Shown: positions 3,817-36,576 of the stretch, one piece after another
Layout of the letters: the number at the start of each line of letters is the position of its first letter
How positions within the stretch are numbered: position 1 is the stretch's first letter
NCBI GenBank assembly: GCA_050298595.1
Contig: JBNKUM010000085.1
Coordinates: 32,001-96,000, forward strand
Source of the DNA: Gammaproteobacteria bacterium
GTDB taxonomy: Bacteria > Pseudomonadota > Gammaproteobacteria > GCA-001735895
Direction: 5' to 3'
DNA: 64,000 nucleotides
Notes under the pieces: model-generated
Told to the model about the DNA's origin: nothing
Database searches by the model: none
What the model saw: only the letters and a program-made list of their open reading frames with translations
Translations under genes and position numbers: made by a program

Positions 3817-4638
3817 TCATATGGTTTTCACCGTGGTCGACAGCGTACTCATTTCGCCCTGTGGAATAGGCGGTGAAGTAGGCCCGCCCACGACCGGTGC
3901 CGAGGTATGGATATGGGTAGCAAACAATGATAGAAAGCTCTGACCCTTGATGACCGGCTCACCACCTTCATCACCCAGGTGAACCTGAGAACCCTTAAGC
4001 ACAATCTTGGGTGCTTCAGCAGTAATACCTGCAGCCGCCATTTCAATCACATTGCCGTTGGAATCTTCAACTTTGGTGCCAGAACTATTCATCGTCATAA
4101 TATTTCCATTGGCATCCTCAACAATTATTTCATTGCCTGGCGCATCCATTTTCAGTGTGGCGCCCGAGGAATCAGTGAGAGAAATGCTGCCATCCTTGTC
4201 AATTATCATCTCTGCTTCCGCCGGGTGGTACAGGCGAAACTGTTCCTCGCCTTCTTCATCATCAAATTGCAGAATATGTCCGGAGCTGGTCTGGATCATG
4301 CGCGTGGTAGGTTCGTCTTTAGATGCATCCTCAGGAGTATCGCTTTGTTGTTGCCAGAAGGTTCCCACCCAGATCGGTCGGCTGATATCGCCCTCTTCGA
4401 ATTCGACCCACAGCTGTGCATCCACATCGGGCACGAAGAACATACCTTGCTGATCCAGGCCACCATAAGGCAGACAGGGCAATGCCCAGTCCGAATCCTG
4501 CTCCGCCAGCACTGAGGGAATACGCAACTTCAGTCGACCACGCTTCTGTGGATCCTGGTTATCTATCACTGTGGCACGATATTTACCAAATCGTTTTTGA
4601 TCGACATAACGCGCTATACGAGCAACCGTTTCTTCCAT
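3817..4638 (-). CDS. Baseplate assembly protein V / VgrG C-terminal (gp5 OB-fold spike)
   Basis: GKYRATVIDNQDPQKRGRLKLRIP, WVEFEEGDISRPIWVG, C-terminal HIH. Confidence 0.9.
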   Translation of the reverse strand: MEETVARIARYVDQKRFGKYRATVIDNQDPQKRGRLKLRIPSVLAEQDSDWALPCLPYGGLDQQGMFFVPDVDAQLWVEFEEGDISRPIWVGTFWQQQSDTPEDASKDEPTTRMIQTSSGHILQFDDEEGEEQFRLYHPAEAEMIIDKDGSISLTDSSGATLKMDAPGNEIIVEDANGNIMTMNSSGTKVEDSNGNVIEMAAAGITAEAPKIVLKGSQVHLGDEGGEPVIKGQSFLSLFATHIHTSAPVVGGPTSPPIPQGEMSTLSTTVKTI

Positions 4639-4640
4639 AG

Positions 4641-5759
4641 CTACCTCACCGCTGCCAGCGCGTCACTGGACTCAGGCTCGGTATTTTGTCCAGTGGCATT
4701 ACGTAATAATCGGAACGACTGCCGATACCCCGTCTGAGCAAATATATGCGTGACCTTGTCGACGTAGTAGAGGCCACCATAGGTATCGCCGATGCCATAA
4801 ACCCCAACAGGTTTATGCGTCAACAGCACATGACCGTACAGCGAACCATCAAGCTCACCTTCGGCGATAACTTTCCAGGCATTTTCATTGGCCTTTGCCT
4901 GCGCGCGTGCACGCGCTTCTTCCAGCGAACTACCAGCAGGACGAGGCATTTGCCAGTTAAACGGGCTTAGCCCCATGCTGTCGCTGCTGGCAGCTGTACT
5001 ACCGAGTAAAGTCAGATTAGGGGTAAAGCTTTCCTGTTCCAGCTCGGTTCCGCTGTCGGCAGCACGTACCAGTGATATCTCATCGGGTTTATGCCCATCA
5101 TGTTGAATACTGATACGCGTACAGTTACTGCGCTCACCTTTGTACACCATGATGTCAGCCTGCGGATCTTCGTCTAGTTGCGGGGGCTTGAAGAAAATCG
5201 TACCTTCGCGAAAGTAAAGTTCGTAGCCATTAGCTTCGGCTCGATCACGCATAAACTGGATACTGGTACCATCCTGATTCAGGCTGATATTGCTCAAGCC
5301 ATCATCAGTTTCTACCTGGAACTGGCTACCTGCTATCTCGCTGAGGATATCGCCATCGCTCATCGCTTCTTCTTCGGTGGACCACACGCGGCGGATATGC
5401 TCCCGATCCAGTAGCAGGCTTTCATCCTGGCACAGCACGATAACTCTGGACTTACCCATTTGCTCAGGGGTATCCGACCACACTTCCTTAACATAGCCGC
5501 GCATGACTTCTTCGGAATAATCTCCAAAGTGGGCTTCCAGTCGAAATGGCTTCCACGGCAGAAATATACCGGCATCCTGTATCTGCCAGCTTTCATCTTC
5601 CAGACGCATGTTATCAAACTCCAGCGTACACACTGTAGCTGCTGATCGACTGCACTCAACACTGGCCTCGATCAGGCTGGGCATCAAGTCGATGATCTCT
5701 TCATCGTCTACAAACAGCTTGCAACGAGCAGGTTGACGAAAATCCTGTTCAGAGCTCAT
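4641..5759 (-). CDS. Late control D / gp27-like hub (VgrG N-terminal part)
   Basis: QDGTSIQFMRDRAEANGYE, GGLYYVDKVTH; lies directly before the spike gene. Confidence 0.85.
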   Translation of the reverse strand: MSSEQDFRQPARCKLFVDDEEIIDLMPSLIEASVECSRSAATVCTLEFDNMRLEDESWQIQDAGIFLPWKPFRLEAHFGDYSEEVMRGYVKEVWSDTPEQMGKSRVIVLCQDESLLLDREHIRRVWSTEEEAMSDGDILSEIAGSQFQVETDDGLSNISLNQDGTSIQFMRDRAEANGYELYFREGTIFFKPPQLDEDPQADIMVYKGERSNCTRISIQHDGHKPDEISLVRAADSGTELEQESFTPNLTLLGSTAASSDSMGLSPFNWQMPRPAGSSLEEARARAQAKANENAWKVIAEGELDGSLYGHVLLTHKPVGVYGIGDTYGGLYYVDKVTHIFAQTGYRQSFRLLRNATGQNTEPESSDALAAVR

Positions 5760-26810: not shown

Positions 26811-28271
26811 ATGAATCATCTCGACGAGTGGGTTCATTTAATCGCCAAACAACTTAAGTCCGAAGCCGAGCTGATTGGCGTACAAGCTAAAAGTGAGCTA
26901 TACGAGGATGCCGCACGGGATACCTTTGTGCGCATGGTATTAGATCCATTTCTACCTGCCAGCTATACGGTCGGATCGGGCAAGGTCATCGACGCTGCCG
27001 GTAATATATCCCAGCCTCAGGATATCGTCATTTATCGTAGCGACTTTCCTCAGTTCAATATGCCGGGCAGCCATGACGTATTCATCTACGAGAGTGTGCT
27101 GGCAACTATTCAGGTGCGCTCAAAGCTGGTTCGTAAATCGTTTTTCAGCGCCATGGATCAATGCGCCTCACTAGGTACTCTCACCCCTGCCATTGATCAC
27201 GCGACCAGACGAGCAATCGCCGAAAAAATGAAAATGCGAGCTGATGCGAAGCACCAATACATTCACCCCGACCCGCTACATACCGGCCGCTTTAACTTGA
27301 TCGCTCGGCCACATTGTTTCATTTATGCCTTTACAGGATATCAAACCAGTGAACATCAACTGGCCGAAAACCTCACCAAATGGATCGATTTTTACCACCA
27401 GGATCAGGATCACGCTGCCCTGCAAATGAAATCCCTGCCCTCGGTGATCGCAACACAGGGCTGTTTTGCCTGGCGAAATGCCGCACCGTTTACCATCAAG
27501 CAACGCGCTTTGATGGGTGTCGGTAACGATCCTGCACCCTTGCGCCTGATCATTCTGCAATTAATGCACGCTCTCAATCGGCGCCTGCTAAACACCAGTG
27601 ATGGCTACGGCATTAAATCGACTATTGCGCCCTACATTGCTCACTTTGAAGCACCCAAAATTACTCAAATGGTTGGCACTGCCTTAAACCCAGGGGATGA
27701 AAAGCCTGCTCCGATCAATAGACCTGTTCCACAACAGCTAGCAGCAAAAGTCCAGCCACCCTCAGCCGAGAAGATACAAGCCACGGTGGGAAAACCTGTT
27801 CAAGCTGCAAAGCAAGCCGCCACAGCAGACAGTGATCAGAACAAAAGCCAACCCCAGATCAAGGATTTCTCTGCCCTCAGATCCAGTATAGCGACTGCCG
27901 GTTCTAATCAGCCGCAGGTAACTAGCACCATTGCTAAATCCACTAACCCTCTCTCCACATTCAGTAGTGGCGACGAAAAAGAGGAAGTTGAAGAGTATCA
28001 GTTTGATCCCATTGATCACCTCAAGCCTGAACCTGAAGAGAAGGCTGAACAATCGGGCGATAACCCCCAACCTGTTCGTCACCATAACAAAGTTGATAAA
28101 GATTTTGAAAGAACTCAAAAACTTCCAGATAAGCTAACCAGTCTGAAAAAAGCTAAGGATTCGAAAGATCCTTTTACAAAAACCTTGATAGAAGCACCGG
28201 AATCTAAGGACAAGGTAACGCCCAATTCTCCTGCAAAAAAATCAGCATACATTTCCGAATCATTGATATAA
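26811..28271 (+). CDS. DUF6602-like (restriction-nuclease fold) protein with long disordered C-terminus
   Basis: GSGKVIDAAGNISQPQDIVIY...ESVLATIQVRSKL; P/Q/E/K-rich last ~190 aa. Confidence 0.65.
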   Translation: MNHLDEWVHLIAKQLKSEAELIGVQAKSELYEDAARDTFVRMVLDPFLPASYTVGSGKVIDAAGNISQPQDIVIYRSDFPQFNMPGSHDVFIYESVLATIQVRSKLVRKSFFSAMDQCASLGTLTPAIDHATRRAIAEKMKMRADAKHQYIHPDPLHTGRFNLIARPHCFIYAFTGYQTSEHQLAENLTKWIDFYHQDQDHAALQMKSLPSVIATQGCFAWRNAAPFTIKQRALMGVGNDPAPLRLIILQLMHALNRRLLNTSDGYGIKSTIAPYIAHFEAPKITQMVGTALNPGDEKPAPINRPVPQQLAAKVQPPSAEKIQATVGKPVQAAKQAATADSDQNKSQPQIKDFSALRSSIATAGSNQPQVTSTIAKSTNPLSTFSSGDEKEEVEEYQFDPIDHLKPEPEEKAEQSGDNPQPVRHHNKVDKDFERTQKLPDKLTSLKKAKDSKDPFTKTLIEAPESKDKVTPNSPAKKSAYISESLI

Positions 28272-28337
28272 CGGGAGTTCCCTGGACCAGCTGCGGAACT
28301 CCCCTCGTTGCTTTGGGCTATTTCACCTTTGGCTCTG

Positions 28338-28361
28338 AGCGGTGCAGCATGACTGCACCGC
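28338..28361. terminator. Hairpin between convergent genes
   Basis: GCGGTGCAG-CATGA-CTGCACCGC. Confidence 0.5.
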
Positions 28362-28389
28362 CTTAGTTTCATGGACAAAGCCTCCTGAT

Positions 28390-28821
28390 CTAATTTCGAC
28401 CACCAGAACCAGATCCTGAACCTCCTCCTGTGCCACCTGAGCCACCTGATCCGCCTGATCCGCCTGATCCGCCAGAGCCAGAACCTGAACTACCACCCAT
28501 TCCAGATTGACTCATGCCATTAGCGCTGTTGCGAGAGCGTAGCTGCTCCTTATTCTTACTTTCTTCCTGTAACTTAATTCTGAGCTGCTCGCGCTCGCGT
28601 AGCGCTTCAAGGTCGGCACTTTGCTGTTCATCGCGGAGTTGTTTTCTAACCTGATCCCGCTGCTGAACAGGCTCACCCTGAGCATCTTTCTCAGTCAATC
28701 GATATTGATGAGTATTCTGGTATTGAAACTGCGCTTCTACCGGTTCATCAACTGCAAATACCGAAGAGGTAAACACCGCAACAGCGGCCAAAGTGGCAAT
28801 TGTAAGTAATTTCGTTTTCAT
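28390..28821 (-). CDS. Secreted Q/E/R-rich protein with Gly/Ser tail
   Basis: AAGGAG RBS before ATG 28821; signal peptide MKTKLLTIATLAAVAVFTSSVFA; GGS repeats. Confidence 0.8.
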   Translation of the reverse strand: MKTKLLTIATLAAVAVFTSSVFAVDEPVEAQFQYQNTHQYRLTEKDAQGEPVQQRDQVRKQLRDEQQSADLEALREREQLRIKLQEESKNKEQLRSRNSANGMSQSGMGGSSGSGSGGSGGSGGSGGSGGTGGGSGSGSGGRN

Positions 28822-28846
28822 GACAGTCTCCTTCATGTTTCTAGAC

Positions 28847-28900
28847 GTGGGAACATTTCCCACATAACATAAATATATGTGGTATTTTTTCCCACGTCAA
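28847..28900 (-). promoter_or_regulatory. sigma70 promoter overlapped by two 17-bp operators
   Basis: Minus strand TTGACG-N17-TATATT; operators GTGGGAACATTTCCCAC (28847-28863) and GTGGTATTTTTTCCCAC (28879-28895). Confidence 0.75.
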
Positions 28901-29012
28901 GCTAATATTAGTATCAGAGCACATTGTTTTTTCAACATTTTCTAATTGAAAAAAATATTCCTTTTAATTCAATTAGTTGAACAGATACCCAGTCATTGCC
29001 CGAACATGAAAT

Positions 29013-29834
29013 ATGAATAAAGTCACACAACAGAAAACACGGCAAACCTTAATCAGGGCGTTAAAGGGCATTCTGCGGCCATTGGTCAGGCTGCTGATTC
29101 AGCATCAAATTACCTTCCCGGCTCTGCGTGAATTGCTTAAGGAGGTATATGTTGAAGTGGCGAATGAAATCATTCAGCGTGATGGTGACGCAGCCAATAA
29201 CAGTCGCATCTATATCCTCACCGGTGTGCACCGCAAAGACATCAAGCGTATCTTCGAACAGCAACCAGAAGATAACGCTCCACCTGCAGATCTGTCTCTC
29301 GGTGGCGCCGTGATTTCCAGCTGGACCGCAAAGGACGAATACATTGATGAACAGGGAATGCCACGAGCATTGAAAAAAAGTGGTAATGACGATGAGCCTG
29401 GTTTTGAGCAACTGGTCGCCAGTGTCAGTAAGGATGTTCGCCCTCGCGCCCTGCTCGATGAATGGCTACGTCAGGGCCTGATCAGCCTTCAACAGGATCA
29501 GCTTGTACTTAACGAAAAAGCCTTCATCCCTTCAGAAGATTTCGAAAAACTATGCTTTTATCTGGAAAGAAATATCCGTGATCACCTCGCCAGCGCGACT
29601 CATAACCTGTTGAAAGAAGGCGAGCCGATGCTAGAACGCAGTGTTTACTACGGCAAGCTGACAGCAGAATCAGTACAACAGTTACGCGAACAGGCCAATG
29701 CAATGGCTATGAATATGCTCAGCGAAATTAACCAGCAAGCTATGCAACGACTACAGGCAGATAGCGATAAGCCTAATACCAACTCTCGCTTCACGCTCGG
29801 CTGTTACTGGCACGAACAGGAAAAATCATCATGA
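29013..29834 (+). CDS. DUF6502 family protein
   Basis: LRPLVRLLI, SRIYILTGVHRKDI, SVSKDVRPRALLDEW, DHLASATHNL, LERSVYY. Confidence 0.8.
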   Translation: MNKVTQQKTRQTLIRALKGILRPLVRLLIQHQITFPALRELLKEVYVEVANEIIQRDGDAANNSRIYILTGVHRKDIKRIFEQQPEDNAPPADLSLGGAVISSWTAKDEYIDEQGMPRALKKSGNDDEPGFEQLVASVSKDVRPRALLDEWLRQGLISLQQDQLVLNEKAFIPSEDFEKLCFYLERNIRDHLASATHNLLKEGEPMLERSVYYGKLTAESVQQLREQANAMAMNMLSEINQQAMQRLQADSDKPNTNSRFTLGCYWHEQEKSS

Positions 29835-30706
29835 AGACCCTTTCAACATTACTAACAATTTTAGCCATTCTATTCATTGCAGCCTGTGCTAATAAGCAAA
29901 CGATGCAACTGACAGAAAATGAGGCTGAGGATTTCGGTATCGGCGGTACCGGAATTATGGCAGGAAATCAGCAGGGAACCGGAATCATCGGCATGATTAC
30001 CGGCTATGGCTCTATTTTTGTGAACGGCATAGAAATAGAAACCGAGAATAATGCCACGATCAGTATTGATGGCATGGTCGTTAAAGCGCATGATTTTGAG
30101 ATCGGTGAAGTCGTTGAAGTACTTACCCTGGACACAAACACCCACACTCAGGCGCAACACATCAATATTCGTCATGAAATCATAGGTCCTGTTTCCCACT
30201 ATGATTATGACCAGTCAACTGCAGTCATTCTGGGTCATACCATTCAACTGACTAATACAATCAACACAGCTGTTGAATTAGGAGATACGCTTGCCGTTTC
30301 TGGATTTACAAATCCCTCAGGCCTGATTCATGCTACTCATATCAGGCATACAACAGACAAGCAGATACTTCTGCGTGGTGTAATTAATCCTGAAGAGCAC
30401 ACCTTACCATTTATTAAGGTGTCAAAGTGGGTAATCCAGGGTTATCCCGCAAGCTACGCATCACAATGGAACATCGACTCTACGAATATTCGCAGCACAG
30501 GAAACAATGAACCTATTGTGTTTGAGGTAATAAAACCTAACTCTGATTCAGCAACTATTAACGTGCTTTCTCAGCAGATGTTACCGAGAGGATCAGCAAA
30601 CAAATCATTTCTTCAACAGCAGCGTATACCCAGTAGATCATTACAACCTGGTCGACAATCCGGATCAGGCGGAGGCGGAGGCGGAGGCGGACGCGGACGA
30701 AGATGA
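29831..30706 (+). CDS. DUF5666-domain lipoprotein
   Basis: Lipobox IAAC; GIGGTG, GMITGYGSIFVNG; Gly-rich tail. Confidence 0.78.
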   Translation: MKTLSTLLTILAILFIAACANKQTMQLTENEAEDFGIGGTGIMAGNQQGTGIIGMITGYGSIFVNGIEIETENNATISIDGMVVKAHDFEIGEVVEVLTLDTNTHTQAQHINIRHEIIGPVSHYDYDQSTAVILGHTIQLTNTINTAVELGDTLAVSGFTNPSGLIHATHIRHTTDKQILLRGVINPEEHTLPFIKVSKWVIQGYPASYASQWNIDSTNIRSTGNNEPIVFEVIKPNSDSATINVLSQQMLPRGSANKSFLQQQRIPSRSLQPGRQSGSGGGGGGGGRGRR

Positions 30707-30803
30707 TAGCAAGCTGAAAAACCCCAATTAAATTCCAGTATCAAAAATGAAGCGCTTAAAAACTTTTCATTTTTTGTTCGCATTAAATTTCAAAATATTT
30801 TTA

Positions 30804-30840
30804 TTGACATAAAAATTTCACAGGCGTAAAGTCGCGCCCC
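30804..30840 (+). promoter_or_regulatory. sigma70 promoter with GC-rich discriminator upstream of rtcB
   Basis: TTGACA-N17-TAAAGT-CGCGCCCC, with an AT-rich upstream tract. Confidence 0.75.
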
Positions 30841-30862
30841 TGATTTTTCAACTTCAACTTTA

Positions 30863-31031
30863 CGGAGGCAATGAATGGTTTTACCAAAAATTCAACTGAG
30901 CCTCGCGTCCTTTACCTTCCGGTAATTTCTTCCGGTCGTCTGGACCGGGCTCCGAATATATCTTAATTTTTATTAGGCCGATTATTGGCTATGGACTATT
31001 GCGTCTATATGCCACTGCTTTTATCGGCCTA
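30863..31031 (+). ncRNA. Candidate structured leader or ncRNA
   Basis: Multibranch fold at 30863-30954 and long hairpin at 30974-31031, found by eye. Confidence 0.4.
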
Positions 31032-31149
31032 TGGAGCAGGAAATGAAACGGGACTACTTATACTCAACCATTAATCGTTCAAAACAACAAAAACACGTAC
31101 CAGCCTTAGATTATAAGTTCGTGCTGGCACAAAACTAAGGAGAATAGCT

Positions 31150-32346
31150 ATGCCTATTCAAAAAATAATCAGTAAAGGAAAAGTACCAGTCAAGATTTAT
31201 ACCGACGAGGTCGAATCTGGTGCCATGCAGCAACTGTATAACATGGCTCAGCTACCTTTTATCCATAGCCATATTGCTGCAATGCCGGATGTTCATATGG
31301 GTAAAGGTGCTACGGTAGGATCAGTCATACCGACCAAAGGCGCCATTATTCCTGCGGCTGTGGGTGTGGATATCGGCTGCGGCATGAATGCAATACGCCT
31401 GACAATAAAAGCTAACGATCTGCCGGATAACTTGCGTGCTGTTCGCCTGGCGATTGAAGAAGCAATCCCAGTGGGTTTTAACATGCACACAACTGATCGT
31501 GCTCGGCGTTCAACTATACAGGCATTATCTGGAGGACTGGATCAAATTATCGGTAAGCACAAAAAGATTTACTCGATGCAGAAAAAGCCCTATCAGACCT
31601 GGATACGCCAGATTGGCACACTGGGTGGTGGCAATCATTTCATCGAGTTATGTCTTGATGAGAATAACGATGTCTGGGTGATGCTGCACTCAGGTAGTCG
31701 CGGCGTGGGTAATGTGATTGGACAGTATTTTATCAGCCTGGCGAAAAAGGATATGGGCCAGCACCTGATCAATCTACCAGATAAGGATCTGGCTTACTTT
31801 AACGAAGGCTGCAAATATTTTGATGATTATATTCAGGCCGTGCAATGGGCTCAGGATTACGCAATGGCTAATCGTCGAGAAATGATGCATCTGATTTTAA
31901 AAGCATTGAGAAAGAAGCTGCCGAAATTCGGCATTACCAAAGAAGCGATTAACTGCCATCACAATTATGTGTCTCGGGAATTTCACTTTGGTGAAAATGT
32001 TTATGTCACTCGCAAGGGTGCCATCAGCGCAGGTCTGGATGAGCTCGGTATTATCCCTGGCAGCATGGGTGCCAAATCCTACATTGTGCGCGGCAAAGGT
32101 AATCCGCAATCATTCTGTTCCTGTGCGCATGGAGCAGGTAGAAAAATGAGCCGCAGTGCGGCCAAACGTCAGTTCAGCGAACAGGATGTAGAGAAACAGA
32201 CTGCAGGGATTGAGTGCCGTAAGGATAAGGGTGTGATAGATGAAATTCCATCCGCTTATAAGGATATTGATCAGGTGATGCAGAATCAATCTGATCTTAT
32301 TGAAGTAGTACATACCCTGAAACAGGTAATCTGCGTTAAGGGTTAG
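31150..32346 (+). CDS. rtcB: RtcB RNA ligase
   Basis: MPDVH, VGVDIGCG, GTLGGGNHF, HSGSRG, HHNY, PGSMG, HGAGR, YKDI. Confidence 0.96.
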   Translation: MPIQKIISKGKVPVKIYTDEVESGAMQQLYNMAQLPFIHSHIAAMPDVHMGKGATVGSVIPTKGAIIPAAVGVDIGCGMNAIRLTIKANDLPDNLRAVRLAIEEAIPVGFNMHTTDRARRSTIQALSGGLDQIIGKHKKIYSMQKKPYQTWIRQIGTLGGGNHFIELCLDENNDVWVMLHSGSRGVGNVIGQYFISLAKKDMGQHLINLPDKDLAYFNEGCKYFDDYIQAVQWAQDYAMANRREMMHLILKALRKKLPKFGITKEAINCHHNYVSREFHFGENVYVTRKGAISAGLDELGIIPGSMGAKSYIVRGKGNPQSFCSCAHGAGRKMSRSAAKRQFSEQDVEKQTAGIECRKDKGVIDEIPSAYKDIDQVMQNQSDLIEVVHTLKQVICVKG

Positions 32347-32508
32347 GGAACCTCTGATTAATTCTGGTTCGATGGTGTGGTGAGATGAAATAGTTCGGAT
32401 CAAGGCGAAAAGTGCACGTAATAGCAAGCTATTGCGAAACTTTTCAACGCTGAGCCGGATTATTTCAGCCACGACACACCGATCCACGAATTGATCAGAG
32501 GTTACTTA
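32344..32508. mobile_element. MITE-like palindromic element
   Basis: TIR AACCTCTGATTAATTC / GAATTGATCAGAGGTT (15/16), TA at both ends, central AATAGCAAGCTATT. Confidence 0.75.
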
Positions 32509-32601
32509 GTTAATTACAACTGGAGAAAAGCATGTTCAATAAACAGCCAAATGAAAAGAGATATCGATTAATGAAGCACCGATTTATCAAGAGAAAAGAT
32601 T

Positions 32602-33540
32602 ATGAAGAAAGAGATTTTAGATGAGGTAATTGCCTGCTTACCAGAAGAGCGAACCTTGTTTCACTACTTTAAAGGGCAATATGCCTATCAACTGCTGTCT
32701 TATGCCAGTAGAAAACAATCCAGTGTAAAAGCAATGAAGCAATCCGTTTATCAAAGGCTACTGAACCAGCAGGACATAAAGCTGTTATTAGCACAGTTGG
32801 GTAATGGAACACTTAATCCTGAATTATTTCAACATGTGTGGAATGATAACAGCCAGCCATTTGTACTGACTGTAGATCGCTGGGGTAACAACAACCAGTG
32901 GAATTGCCAGACTACTCGTAAAGGCTGCAATCTGGTACTGCAATTGAATTTTTCAGAAATGCATAACCGTACTTATCAGCGCCTGGTTAAACCAGAAGAT
33001 GATTATATTTTTAACTATTCAGGTCATCCCGTGATGGATCGTAATAAGAGTGAGCGCTATCGAGATACGCTAGCCTGGTCACGTATAGACCTTGATCTGG
33101 ATAGCGGTGAAGCATTGATAGAAGAAATTCAAAGCGACTGGGTTCGGCGTGTAAAGCGCTGTTTACAGGCAATAAAAAAGGGTTCTACTCCCTGGTTTCT
33201 GGACTGGTGCAAATGCAGTAGCGATGATTTTATTATGTATGCTGAAAATGTGCTGGCTCCTTTTTATACCCTATGGGCTGAAGCTATGCTGTCATCCAGT
33301 ATCCATTTTATATTCAGAGAGCTGGGTATAGATAAAATTTATTATCACACCCACGAAACCGGACAAAAGATAAAGCAGGTCTATGGAGGTGCCCCACCAC
33401 GCTCTCTGTATTCCGATTTACCCAGAAAATTCTGTTTTCAAATTACTGATGAAGAGCCTGAGTTTATGAAAAATGACCGGAGCTTCAAACGTAAAAAGCG
33501 CAGCCTTAAACAGCTTGCATGGTACAAACTGGAACTTTAG
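32602..33540 (+). CDS. Hypothetical protein in the rtcB operon
   Basis: 312-aa ORF; NLVLQLNF, TLAWSRIDLD, LIEEIQSDW, PPRSLYSDLPRKFCF. Confidence 0.8.
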   Translation: MKKEILDEVIACLPEERTLFHYFKGQYAYQLLSYASRKQSSVKAMKQSVYQRLLNQQDIKLLLAQLGNGTLNPELFQHVWNDNSQPFVLTVDRWGNNNQWNCQTTRKGCNLVLQLNFSEMHNRTYQRLVKPEDDYIFNYSGHPVMDRNKSERYRDTLAWSRIDLDLDSGEALIEEIQSDWVRRVKRCLQAIKKGSTPWFLDWCKCSSDDFIMYAENVLAPFYTLWAEAMLSSSIHFIFRELGIDKIYYHTHETGQKIKQVYGGAPPRSLYSDLPRKFCFQITDEEPEFMKNDRSFKRKKRSLKQLAWYKLEL

Positions 33541-33549
33541 GAGAAAAAT

Positions 33550-33768
33550 ATGCCAAGACGAAATCGAGCTATTAGAAACCCTGTTGCTCGCTCCCCACTA
33601 CTCAGAAAAGGTGGAGTTCATAGCCAGACAACAACTGGACAACGGGTTCGCAACCGACTTCAAACTCAATCAGCTATCAATGAATGGCTGGAGGAGATTG
33701 AAGACGAAGCAATAACTCAAACTAAGGTTAAGGGGAGCAATAGCTCCCCTTATTGCTTTCAGCTGTAA
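33550..33768 (+). CDS. Small basic protein (candidate ribosome rescue factor)
   Basis: AGGAG RBS; RNPVARSPLLRKGGVH. Confidence 0.75.
   Translation: MPRRNRAIRNPVARSPLLRKGGVHSQTTTGQRVRNRLQTQSAINEWLEEIEDEAITQTKVKGSNSSPYCFQL
33729..33759 (+). terminator. Intrinsic terminator inside the 72-aa ORF
   Basis: GGGGAGC-AATA-GCTCCCC then TTATTGCTTT; the stop codon is at 33766. Confidence 0.65.
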
Positions 33769-33789
33769 AAAGGAGGAACCTAAGCGTAA

Positions 33790-34353
33790 ATGAAGATTCT
33801 AAAGATCATGAACCTACTTAAACTCATATTAATATCAGCAATGATAACAACCACAGTATCGTCCTGCAGCTCAAATATTCCTCTGGATATTTCTCAGGAA
33901 GTACAGGGAGCCCCCAGTTTTACACAGATTCAGAAACAACCTGAGGCCTACCAGGACCAACCACTACGCTGGGGTGGCACGATCCTGAAAACTGACAATA
34001 AACAAGGCTCCAGCTGGATAACCATTGTCGCCTTTCCATTAAACAATAATGGACGACCTATGGAGTCAGATCAGAGCCCAGGACGCTTTATCGCTGTCAT
34101 CGATGAATTTCTCGAGCCCTTAGTCTTCACTCGAGATCGTGAAATTACCGTTCGCGGTAGACTGATCAAAACTGAAACTATCAAGGTTGGCGATTTTCCA
34201 TATCAATACCCTTTACTACAGGTAGACAGTTATCACCTGTGGGCTCCGAAGCCCGAAATAAACGAAATGAATTCGCCCCATTTCTGGCCATATTCCTGGC
34301 CTTATTATCCCTACTACCCCGACCCTTACTTTAATCGTCGACTCTATTACTAA
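33790..34353 (+). CDS. Slp-family outer-membrane lipoprotein
   Basis: VSSC lipobox, RWGG, GRFIA, FLEP, YQYP. Confidence 0.88.
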   Translation: MKILKIMNLLKLILISAMITTTVSSCSSNIPLDISQEVQGAPSFTQIQKQPEAYQDQPLRWGGTILKTDNKQGSSWITIVAFPLNNNGRPMESDQSPGRFIAVIDEFLEPLVFTRDREITVRGRLIKTETIKVGDFPYQYPLLQVDSYHLWAPKPEINEMNSPHFWPYSWPYYPYYPDPYFNRRLYY

Positions 34354-34853
34354 TGAACGAAATGAAAAAACCGATACGCAAAAGTATTTTTCTTCTGCCC
34401 CTGATCAGCCTGCTTGCGGGCTGTGCCAGTACACCTACATTTGATGTCACTCAGGTAGACAATACACTTATACCGCAGAATGTTGCCGCCGAACCCTCTG
34501 CCTATCTGGGTAAAACGGTTCTATGGGGCGGCATTATCCTGGACACCAGGAATTTATCCGGTTCTACACAGATAGAATTACTAGCCTATCCGCTAAGCAA
34601 GGATCAGAGGCCCCTGTCGGACAATAGACCATTAGGGCGCTTCCTGATTAATAAAGATGGGTTTCTGGACCCTGCGATTTATTCCCAGGGCCAGAAAGTC
34701 ACCGTACTCGGCAGCGTCGATAAAAACCAACAGGGAAAGGTTGGCGAAAGTAATTACAGCTATCCAGTCATTAATGCCGAGCAACTCCAGCTCTGGTCAC
34801 CACAGAGCGAAAGCCAAACTCGATTTAGTTTTGGGCTCGGGGTTGTCTTTTAA
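34353..34853 (+). CDS. Slp-family outer-membrane lipoprotein (paralog)
   Basis: LAGC lipobox, VLWGG, GRFL, FLDP, YSYP. Confidence 0.88.
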   Translation: MNEMKKPIRKSIFLLPLISLLAGCASTPTFDVTQVDNTLIPQNVAAEPSAYLGKTVLWGGIILDTRNLSGSTQIELLAYPLSKDQRPLSDNRPLGRFLINKDGFLDPAIYSQGQKVTVLGSVDKNQQGKVGESNYSYPVINAEQLQLWSPQSESQTRFSFGLGVVF

Positions 34854-35007
34854 GGCAGCTCTGAAACCAGCCTCTGGTTGAAAAATTTAACCGGCAAAAT
34901 AGTGAAGTGAAAATCCCCGCCTAACCTATGTAGTTACACCGCCATTTGCGGATTGCCATTTTTTACAATCTGTAATTTTTTTGAATAATATTTTAATGTG
35001 CCATAGT

Positions 35008-35085
35008 AAAAAAGACCCGGCAAGGTTCACTGTTTTTTTACTTACAGTTCCGGCCAGGTCCTTTAGAGAGGAACCCCTCTCTTCA
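35008..35085 (-). ncRNA. Candidate ~80-nt sRNA
   Basis: Own promoter (TTGCAG-N17-TATATA at 35119-35091), 5' hairpin, terminator stem plus T6. Confidence 0.45.
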
Positions 35086-35151
35086 CTTATTATATAGCTC
35101 AGATTTTTTTAATCTGCAAACTTAATTCACAATTATTGTAAAAGTAATAAT

Positions 35152-36576
35152 TTAGTCTGCAGTATTACTTTCATCGCTTAGCAACCAAGTCAAAATCATC
35201 TCCTTTATTTTAAGGTACTCGTCATCATCAGGGGTAACATTTTGCCATTGAGGATTCTGCCGCAGGGTCTTTAAAACATCACTCCATTTTTTTGGAAGCG
35301 TACGACCAGTTTCATTGAAAAGCTTTAGCCTGCTTTGCGCCGCATGTCCTCGATGTGTCAGGGTTGTTAATAACCTGCGCTGTCTGAGATAAAGCAGACT
35401 GACTGTTTCATCATCAACACATAGCCATTGGTGACCACGCCAGGCTGCCATCAATTCCTTTTGATATCGTTGAACTGACGCCCATCCTCCACCTATTGCT
35501 GCACCTAGCAGGCTCGCTGCCCCCAGGCTTAAGCCTCCTACCATTAAATCAATGCCTGCACCGACAGCAGCACCGGATAGTGCAGAGGCTCCTACATCCA
35601 GTCCAAATTCTTTTAACATATGCGGTGAAAATATATCCAGCTCCCAACGACCATTGCTCACTGGCAACTGCTGCAGATCGAGGTCCAGTTGAGTAAAAGC
35701 AAAGATTGCCAATAGATCCTTCAAAGCCCTTTGTTCGGCATTACGCACGAAATCCTGCATTGAATTCACGTCGCTATCAGAAATACTTTTACTGGTTTTC
35801 GTTTTATCAGATTTACTACCAGTGACCTCAAGCCGATAACAGGCTACTTCGCAGAGAAGTTGAAAGATACGACGTGCGGCAGCCTGCTTCAGGTTTTGCC
35901 ATACCTGTTGGCGGTAGTCGATTAAATGCTGCAGGGAATCGTAGTAACGCTCCAGCAGGCTTTGCAGTTTTTGGTACAGCCGTTTTTCAGCCTCAAAATC
36001 AAAAGCAACCGTATCAAACTCAAGTGCCGCATGCAGATTAAACAAAGCCATCTGTTCACGCCAGCGCTTCAGCGCTTCATCATTTCCTTCGATAAAATTA
36101 AACACCGGAAGAATCGGTTTACCTGCCTTACTGAGGACTTCTACTTCATCGCGATACTTACCCAGCAACGGTTCGCGTACATCAATAATATATAGCAACA
36201 CATCACTACTTAGTGACTGTCGCAGCACCTTGATCTCCTGATCAAAATCAGCATAACGGTCTTGCCGAGAGATGAAAGCCTTCAGGAGTTCAGCGGGTGA
36301 AGCAGTTTCTATTGATGCTGATAACGCTTCCACTTCCTCCAGTAGTGCGCTGGAATCTTCAAAGCCCGGTGTATCGAACAGGCTTAATACAATCTCATCA
36401 TCTGCATAAATAGACGACTGTTCTACAGAGCGCGTGGTACCCGCAGCATCATCGACATTGCCGAAATGATCGTCGCGTAACAAGGTTCGGATCAATGATG
36501 TTTTACCGGCATTGGTATGACCGACAATGCCAACTTTGATTGCTACTGAAGGATTAGCCTGCATGGAATTGGTCAT
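35152..36576 (-). CDS. GTPase / DUF3482 domain protein
   Basis: GHTNAGKTS, DTPG, YIIDVRE. Confidence 0.85.
   Translation of the reverse strand: MTNSMQANPSVAIKVGIVGHTNAGKTSLIRTLLRDDHFGNVDDAAGTTRSVEQSSIYADDEIVLSLFDTPGFEDSSALLEEVEALSASIETASPAELLKAFISRQDRYADFDQEIKVLRQSLSSDVLLYIIDVREPLLGKYRDEVEVLSKAGKPILPVFNFIEGNDEALKRWREQMALFNLHAALEFDTVAFDFEAEKRLYQKLQSLLERYYDSLQHLIDYRQQVWQNLKQAAARRIFQLLCEVACYRLEVTGSKSDKTKTSKSISDSDVNSMQDFVRNAEQRALKDLLAIFAFTQLDLDLQQLPVSNGRWELDIFSPHMLKEFGLDVGASALSGAAVGAGIDLMVGGLSLGAASLLGAAIGGGWASVQRYQKELMAAWRGHQWLCVDDETVSLLYLRQRRLLTTLTHRGHAAQSRLKLFNETGRTLPKKWSDVLKTLRQNPQWQNVTPDDDEYLKIKEMILTWLLSDESNTAD

Follow-up and report, generated by a model that had tools for sequence, protein, structure and literature searches.

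An open reading frame (ORF) of an rtcB gene cluster, located in a 64,000-nucleotide stretch of a Gammaproteobacteria bacterium contig (the window hereafter), was found to be a real, conserved gene. According to its alignment, the 72-aa product belongs to a large protein family that has no name and whose small, basic members occur in Gamma- and Betaproteobacteria. A terminator hairpin lies within the reading frame, and comparison with homologues indicated that the conserved thing at this place is an RNA element and that the mRNA is probably stop-less. This makes the protein a strong candidate, open to testing, for a ribosome rescue factor of a new kind that is gated by transfer-messenger RNA (tmRNA) and tied to RNA repair, a role that we infer from the regulatory architecture, the composition of the protein and the gene context. 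The case thus brings together a new protein family, a known regulatory trick and a new genomic setting. The original prediction had described a small basic ORF with an internal terminator and interpreted it as a rescue factor co-expressed with RNA repair; the observation was confirmed and strengthened by comparison, and the overall interpretation was partly supported.

The hairpin in the window consists of TAAGGGGAGC-AATA-GCTCCCCTTA, which forms a perfect stem of 10 pairs (6 G-C) around a loop of 4 nt and is followed by TTGCTTTCAG (Table 1). This G+C-rich stem-loop with 5 T in the next 8 nt has the make-up of an intrinsic terminator, and the end of the stem was 14 nt from the stop codon. The hairpin and U-rich tract that had been predicted ahead of the stop were therefore borne out, and both are inside the ORF. 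When folded alone, the hairpin had an energy of -17.5 kcal/mol; its 91-nt context had a z of -2.28, with 4 of 200 shuffled sequences folding equally well. A simple scan of positions 30500-35500 gave 10 terminator-like sites compared with 4.0 +/- 2.2 in shuffled sequences, showing that the single window site is not significant alone; the significance of this terminator rests on the comparison with homologous sequences. The 18-nt core GGGGAGCNNNNGCTCCCC had a single occurrence in the 5.49-Mb genome and is therefore no dispersed repeat. No Rfam match was found in positions 28000-36000 at E<=1.

When 11 homologues of the window's clade were compared, the core GGGGAGC-N4-GCTCCCC was invariant, while the mean column identity of the surrounding alignment was 51%. 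The core occurred in codon phases 2 (KGSxxSP), 0 (GExxLP) and 1 (GGANAPP), indicating that selection acts on the nucleic acid and not on the peptide. It started 144-154 nt past the protein motif in these homologues, and their stop codons were found 4, 16, 34, 45, 60, 62, 81, 127 or 262 nt beyond it. Past the T run the sequences stopped aligning and differed by insertions and deletions. The T runs were cleaner in the homologues (GATTTTTTAA, TTTTTTATTC, GATTTTTTTAG) than in the window, with 6-7 T of 8. Unrelated hairpin sequences were present at the same place in four further loci, with T runs in three of them (L028, L035 and L162) and a weaker tail in L076. Homologues had been expected to vary in their C-termini, and they did so, with protein lengths of 43-165 aa across the family; stops 4-262 nt past the core in the 11 homologues are what an mRNA ending at the terminator would lead one to expect.

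The frequency of such terminators was determined with a detector that accepted perfect stems of 6 bp or more containing 3 or more G-C pairs, provided that the loop had 3-9 nt, the energy did not exceed -9 kcal/mol and 5 or more T were among the 8 nt that followed. A starting set of 161 family genes was reduced to 145 when 14 duplicates and two genes missed by the peptide pattern (L214 and L221) were dropped. A terminator was detected inside the ORF in 19 of the 145 genes, across the stop in 0 and after the stop in 1; none was detected in 125. By contrast, the 520 control ORFs (at least 150 aa, from the same loci) had terminators inside in 6 cases, across the stop in 0 and after it in 19, with 495 having none; here, 'inside' refers to the last 150 nt and 'after' to the 160 nt following the stop. 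The in-ORF terminators of the 19 family genes were 2-259 nt ahead of the stop. By this detector, the expectation that homologues keep a hairpin before the stop held for these 19 genes. The detector is insensitive: among 24 ArfA genes used as a control, it placed 2 terminators inside and 2 after the ORF and reported none for 20, so that a gene scored as 'none' may still have a structure. As judged from these sequences, the stop-less design is confined to part of the family, namely the clade of the window and some few others.

These counts also bear on a simpler explanation, in which the gene encodes an ordinary small RNA- or ribosome-binding protein from a normal mRNA and the hairpin is an operon terminator or mRNA-stabilising stem that overlaps the loose 3' end of the ORF and has no regulatory meaning. 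Such an accidental overlap would fit the imperfect T tract and the short distance from stem to stop (14 nt in the window and 2 nt in locus L012), the normal stop of most family members, the stop within a hairpin loop in locus L022 and the terminator located past the stop in locus L026. However, the ratio of inside to after was 19:1 in the family and 6:19 in the control ORFs, and no terminator-bearing gene had its stop upstream of the hairpin, while the downstream stops ranged over 4-262 nt. The position of the hairpin was also steady, at approximately 143-168 nt past the core motif, with the ORF running up to 87 unconserved codons beyond it. Accidental overlap was accordingly considered rather improbable. 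In the Arenicella relative L022 (positions ~4150-4180), a G+C-rich hairpin with a T run behind it carries the TAG stop of the small gene in its loop, an arrangement intermediate between 'inside' and 'after'.

The family was assembled by several searches. A word-based search gave 16 relatives that were 56-95 aa long; scanning species genomes yielded 86 relatives in 87 candidate stretches, 80 of which were kept, and a metagenome scan gave 371 relatives in 420 stretches, again with 80 kept. An exhaustive profile search retrieved 929 clusters (50% identity) at E<=0.001, including 226 at E<=1e-10; the proteins found were 43-165 aa long, and the match was always N-terminal. In the 66-sequence family alignment, M1, N10, P11, V12, A13, S15, P16, L17, L18, K20, G22, H24 and R32 were invariant. 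Family members share a layout in which an invariant NPVA-SPLL-K-G-H core is followed by an Arg/Lys-rich stretch and then by a long helix; conservation ends near residue 50, and beyond it the C-termini vary freely in length and sequence. Residues 9-24 of the window protein had been read as RNPVARSPLLRKGGVH, and the translation of the ORF agreed. This protein is strongly basic (10 Arg and 1 Lys among residues 1-38), and an AlphaFold2 (AF2) model predicted an extended segment for residues 1-27 and a helix for residues 28-61, with a mean predicted local distance difference test (pLDDT) value of 76.4. No Pfam or NCBIfam model matched the 72-aa protein at E<=1, and no Protein Data Bank (PDB) chain was matched by the protein alone or by the 66-sequence family profile at E<=10. 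According to the record titles, carriers in the Gamma- and Betaproteobacteria include Chromatiaceae, Arenicella, Sedimenticolaceae, Methylococcaceae, Nitrosomonas, Casimicrobiaceae and Rariloculaceae. The source annotation of the family proteins was 'hypothetical protein' or nameless, and Protein Atlas held only unnamed clusters for both the 72-aa protein and the 312-aa protein encoded beside it. The family was not described in the literature searched; that literature did not take in two published gene lists, one of genes linked to RtcB and one of relatives of ArfT, in which the family could appear.

Longer proteins that seemed to be fusions were found in 19 cases. Nine of these were examined and rejected as informative domain fusions, being read-through or mis-called ORFs that run into neighbouring genes or into unconserved sequence; the partners in the read-through ORFs were an amidase, ChaC, an RlaP-type PF10127 gene and a solute-binding protein. 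At several Casimicrobiaceae-type loci (L064 2756-4129, L071 and L059; proteins P0022, P0024 and P0032), the amidase ORF located upstream enters the small gene in frame and stop-free. Gene callers report amidase fusions of 490-594 aa at these loci, and a real fusion and translational coupling are both possible. In P0026 (312 aa, metagenome), the first ~50 residues of the small protein run stop-free into an RlaP-type nucleotidyltransferase (PF10127), which is a further RNA-repair neighbour and a further case of a missing stop.

A terminator inside a gene's own reading frame is a hallmark of back-up rescue factors. In the case of ArfA and BrfA, the mRNA lacks a stop codon, tmRNA tags the product, and the factor accumulates only if trans-translation is overloaded. 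To our knowledge, tmRNA gating through stop-less mRNA is known only for back-up rescue factors (ArfA and BrfA), making a rescue role the most economical reading of the gene. Transcripts in the window's clade would, from the comparison, mostly end at the positions given in Table 1, before the stop codon. A ribosome reaching the 3' end of such an mRNA would be resolved by tmRNA and the product tagged and degraded, and the small protein would accumulate only once trans-translation is saturated or tmRNA is damaged. Its basic N-terminal half may then bind the vacant mRNA channel or the decoding region of a stalled 30S subunit, and the bound protein would either recruit a release factor or ready the ribosome for repair. 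It would be co-expressed with RtcB, and in relatives with RbfA-like 30S-binding and GNAT-fold proteins, and jointly they would mend cleaved RNA of the translation apparatus. The RtcB link fits two precedents, namely the coupling of release and repair in PrfH-RtcB2 (PMC6514570) and the ligation of E. coli tmRNA by RtcB (PMC9650030). Damage to tmRNA would then both lift the repression of the small protein and call for the RtcB ligase. We give this full reading, which comprises stop-less expression, tmRNA gating and a back-up rescue role, an even chance of being correct.

The small gene is located 9 nt after the gene of a 312-aa conserved protein (U312), which in turn follows rtcB (Table 1). The link to rtcB had been proposed from the window and was found to recur: within the fetched flanks, RtcB was adjacent to 37 of the 145 family genes, the 312-aa gene to 21 and both to 18. 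Among the terminator-bearing genes, 14 of 19 were RtcB-adjacent. Three gene orders were observed, namely rtcB-312aa-small, rtcB-small and, in Chromatiaceae, small-rtcB. The window RtcB fell short of two model cut-offs, scoring 190 against 407 for NF007153, the E. coli-type equivalog, and 153.8 against 271.8 bits for the PrfH-linked TIGR03073. Outside the window, contig C69 of the host genome (3527-4657) encodes another RtcB of this short type (446.8 bits); a second copy of the small gene was not found in the genome. U312 had no Pfam (GNAT included) or NCBIfam match above cut-off. Its AF2 model had a pLDDT of 80.6 and a predicted TM-score (pTM) of 0.86. When the model was compared with representative PDB chains by VIA-align, all 50 matches listed were GNAT acyltransferases, with Z of just 6.0-7.4, and Foldseek gave E values of 0.13 or worse; a divergent GNAT-like fold is thus probable from the model. 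The invariant residues of U312 include H142-P-V and a TLAW-R-D-D ... EALIEE-Q-D block.

An RbfA-like gene precedes rtcB in relatives of the window. It was intact in loci L012-L015, encoding 141-148 aa, and PF02033 matched with 38.8-40.1 bits (cut-off 34.7) in L012, L013 and L014. When searched by tblastn, the gene was found in 9 related loci, and the window retains only a C-terminal stretch of it, a remnant left by an internal deletion. The intact gene in relatives indicates that the operon of the clade comprises an rbfA-like gene, rtcB, the GNAT-fold gene and the small stop-less gene. An rbfA-rtcB operon was not described in the literature searched. Among the tblastn matches were also L016, L019, L021, L027 and L153, with two high-scoring segment pairs in L016 and in L027.

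Table 1. Positions of the small gene, its terminator and the genes of the rtcB cluster in the window
Feature	Position	Strand	Remarks
RbfA-like gene remnant, 31 codons	31043..31138	+	From alignment and translation; intact directly upstream of rtcB in relatives
rtcB, RNA 3'-phosphate/5'-OH ligase, 398 aa	31150..32346	+	Pfam PF01139, 444.2 bits
U312, 312-aa conserved protein, no named family	32602..33540	+	Predicted GNAT-like fold, residues ~84-312
Shine-Dalgarno AGGAG	33539..33543	+	6 nt 5' of ATG; shares bases with the U312 stop codon; read from the sequence
Small basic protein gene of the new family	33550..33768	+	ATG start, 72 aa, TAA end
Invariant core of the family, codons 9-24, RNPVARSPLLRKGGVH	33574..33621	+	Invariant columns in the 66-sequence alignment
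Terminator hairpin within the ORF	33729..33752	+	Stem 33729-33738 / 33743-33752, loop 33739-33742; invariant core 33732-33749
T-rich tract TTGCTTTCAG	33753..33762	+	Transcript ends expected at ~33757-33761 (codons 70-71, before the stop); 3' end position inferred
Stop codon TAA	33766..33768	+	Probably missing from terminated transcripts

The census covered 400 evenly sampled genomes of the class. The new family was present in 38 of them and ArfA (PF03889) in 5, and no genome had both. RtcB (PF01139) was found in 143 genomes, a tally that includes three flagged as unpublished (G141, G308 and G296). Cross-reading of the two tables placed RtcB in 30 of the 38 family-positive genomes and in 113 of the 362 family-negative genomes; no RtcB was found in the other 8 family-positive genomes. 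Of 6 genomes of one genus, 3 had ArfA and 1 had the new family; none had both, and 2 lacked the two. No tblastx match was obtained between L096, an ArfA locus, and L152, a new-family locus of the same genus. On the minus strand of L152, the 312-aa gene (4162-5136) overlaps the small gene (3957-4169), and RtcB was not found in that genome. The host genome of the window is 98.6% complete and encodes tmRNA, RF1, an ArfB-like protein of 141 aa and RF2, the gene of which has the usual frameshift site. PF03889 gave 0 matches in this host genome, with a positive E. coli control. The three RF-1-domain genes of the host are on contigs C94, C101 and C67, and none is on the contig of the window.

The same gene context could also be read as that of a tmRNA-gated accessory of the repair module that does not release peptides. 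Such a protein might, for instance, flag damaged ribosomes, tmRNA or tRNA for RtcB or keep hold of them, or it could be a partner or substrate of the GNAT-fold protein; lost trans-translation would then switch on repair, not rescue. Consistent with this role, the small gene abuts or overlaps the GNAT-fold gene (a 9-nt gap in the window and an 8-nt overlap in genome G291), the operon contains RtcB and an RbfA-like 30S factor, and E. coli tmRNA is a ligation target of RtcB according to PMC9650030. However, 108 of the 145 family genes had no RtcB in the fetched flanks, and when 50 neighbour proteins were scanned at 34 loci without RtcB, unrelated housekeeping genes (amidase, HemN-like, PP-loop ATPase) were found, showing that the small protein also works as a stand-alone gene. 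Together with the 8 family-positive genomes without any RtcB, these loci indicate that it must have an RtcB-independent function. The accessory role, the main rival of the rescue reading, was judged unlikely.

The rescue role and the repair context can also be joined in one reading. The family would then be a rescue system as widespread as ArfA or more so (38 vs 5 of 400 genomes), with one clade being tmRNA-gated within an RbfA-like/RtcB/GNAT-fold operon. Cuts to tmRNA, tRNA or 16S rRNA by ribotoxins or oxidation would allow the factor to escape tagging and to free stalled ribosomes, while RtcB would religate the broken RNA. This joint reading is put forward tentatively, as possible and somewhat short of probable.

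Several results weigh against a tmRNA-gated rescue role. The T tract of the window is imperfect, and just 14 nt separate the stem from the stop; the 97%-identical relative L012 has a TGA 2 nt beyond the stem, which a terminated transcript would contain. The two slp genes described below begin 22 nt past the stop of the small ORF, so that their transcription requires either read-through or a separate promoter. With 125 of 145 family genes having no in-ORF terminator by the detector, the function of the family would be independent of stop-less expression. The 19 terminator genes were mostly in one 37-row clade of the tree, and the well-supported branches need no more than one origin; clustered in one part of the tree, the 19 cases are not independent. 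This tree (145 rows, 55 columns) was a quick version and poorly resolved, and it cannot give the number of terminator origins. The counts behind the complementarity with ArfA are small, with ~0.5 overlaps expected by chance, and the host already has tmRNA and an ArfB-like protein. No homology to ArfA, RF2 or any PDB chain was detectable. The basic tails of ArfA, ArfB and SmpB are C-terminal, whereas the basic region of the new protein is N-terminal. Finally, the tight pairing with the 312-aa GNAT-fold gene, seen even in genome G291, in which the search for RtcB gave nothing, fits a non-rescue role too.

The small gene had been called the last gene of the rtcB cluster. This holds for the conserved cluster; on the same strand, however, two tandem genes of Slp-family lipoproteins continue (33790-34853), with a strong AAGGAGG site. 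The slp arrangement was kept in L012-L015 and not in more distant relatives. Ahead of the cluster, positions 29013-30706 encode a DUF6502 protein (96.5 bits) and, with a weak match to DUF5666, a protein rich in glycine; both recur upstream in L012, L013 and L015. Between these genes and rtcB is a long leader (30707-31150) with a sigma-70-like site at 30804-30832; part of the leader is the decayed rbfA-like gene. The predicted structure of the leader was more stable than that of shuffled sequences (z -2.58, 1/100) and had no Rfam match.

The known back-up routes for ribosomes on stop-less mRNA are few (ArfA, ArfB, ArfT, BrfA, RqcH and PrfH), and reviews ask whether there are more. The present analysis adds a candidate from a family of ~1000 clusters at 50% identity that are now called 'hypothetical protein'; none of the genomes searched had both this family and ArfA. 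The linkage of the candidate with RtcB, RbfA-like and GNAT-fold proteins provides a concrete hypothesis for the role of bacterial RtcB operons without RtcR or RtcA, and the linkage to RtcB would broaden the concept, put forward for PrfH-RtcB2, that rescue and repair are coupled. If the proposal is true, the operon would form a self-sensing rescue-and-repair circuit, and bacterial RtcB would have a defined physiological partner. An in-ORF terminator that stays conserved while its codon phase changes, and beyond which the position of the stop varies, can also serve as a search handle for further tmRNA-gated genes.

When compared with known systems, the new family resembles ArfA in being small and basic, in its occurrence in Gamma- and Betaproteobacteria, in the hairpin before the stop and in the variable, unconserved C-terminus. 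At the sequence level, the new gene has what marks an ArfA-type in-ORF hairpin, namely a hairpin with a T tract, phase-independent conservation and variable stops; the ArfA gene of locus L096 likewise has a hairpin and a T8 run within its ORF. In E. coli, arfA depends on being cut by RNase III. Unlike ArfA, the new family lacks the KGKGSY motif, has its conserved basic part at the N-terminus and is rtcB-linked. Its in-ORF hairpins occur only in a subset of genes and there as canonical intrinsic terminators, a type that the detector flagged inside 2 of 24 ArfA genes.

A common ancestry with ArfA or ArfT was also considered, in which the family would be an extremely diverged branch of one of these RF-dependent factors and not an independent invention; this concerns descent and is compatible with a rescue role. 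Size and taxon range are similar, and the family's SPLLR resembles ArfA's DPLFR. The original prediction had found no alignment to ArfA by eye, and hhalign agreed: the family alignment was compared with an alignment of 25 ArfA sequences from genomes with a PF03889 match, and only those 6 columns (SPLLR on DPLFR) were aligned, with 0.47% probability and E 0.13. In addition, PF03889 found nothing in the host genome, and PF10685 (KGG), which we take to be the Pfam model for the GsiB-type family that holds ArfT, matched 0 of 66 family members at E<=10, nothing in the host genome and 1 of 61 genomes of relatives. The RKGGxH of the family also recalls the KGKGS of ArfA and the KKGGSTNKK of ArfT, the latter as given in 10.1101/465609. 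Descent from either factor was considered very unlikely. The GGxH..KT of the family was rejected as a mimic of the GGQHVNKT loop of release factors, with hhalign against RF2 aligning nothing there (0.06%). When a complex of host RF2 (30-row alignment) with residues 1-66 of the small protein was predicted, the scores were 0.33, 0.23 and 0.20, falling on both sides of the mark of 0.32 and speaking neither for nor against the complex.

ArfT of Francisella was compared by description only. It is described in 10.1101/465609 as a protein of 40 aa with KKGGSTNKK near the C-terminus, and its gene, like most of the new family, has no in-ORF terminator there. ArfT and the new protein are both very small and basic, and K-K-G-G-S resembles R-K-G-G-x-H; however, the ArfT motif is near the C-terminus of 40 aa, while the motif here occupies residues 19-24 of 72. 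In PMC6514570, ArfT is placed in a broad family with reference to the GsiB and LEA repeat literature.

BrfA is the closest regulatory analogue. It is made from an mRNA truncated by an intrinsic terminator within its ORF; BrfA and the 72-aa protein are of about the same size, and in both the intrinsic terminator precedes the stop. BrfA differs in belonging to another phylum, and we know of no linkage of BrfA to RtcB. A BrfA chain was presumably present in the PDB library that the family profile searched without a match (E<=10). This factor of Bacillus subtilis is RF-dependent (PMC6881298).

The PrfH-RtcB2 pair, which couples ribosome rescue with RNA repair according to PMC6514570 and is also treated in PMC9223846 and PMC12829566, was compared as well. 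It differs from the window cluster, which has no RF-like gene and whose RtcB is under the TIGR03073 cut-off, with a partner of 72 aa that has no GGQ domain. The likeness is a rescue component beside an RtcB ligase and a proposed logic in which the stalled ribosome is freed and the cleaved RNA is religated.

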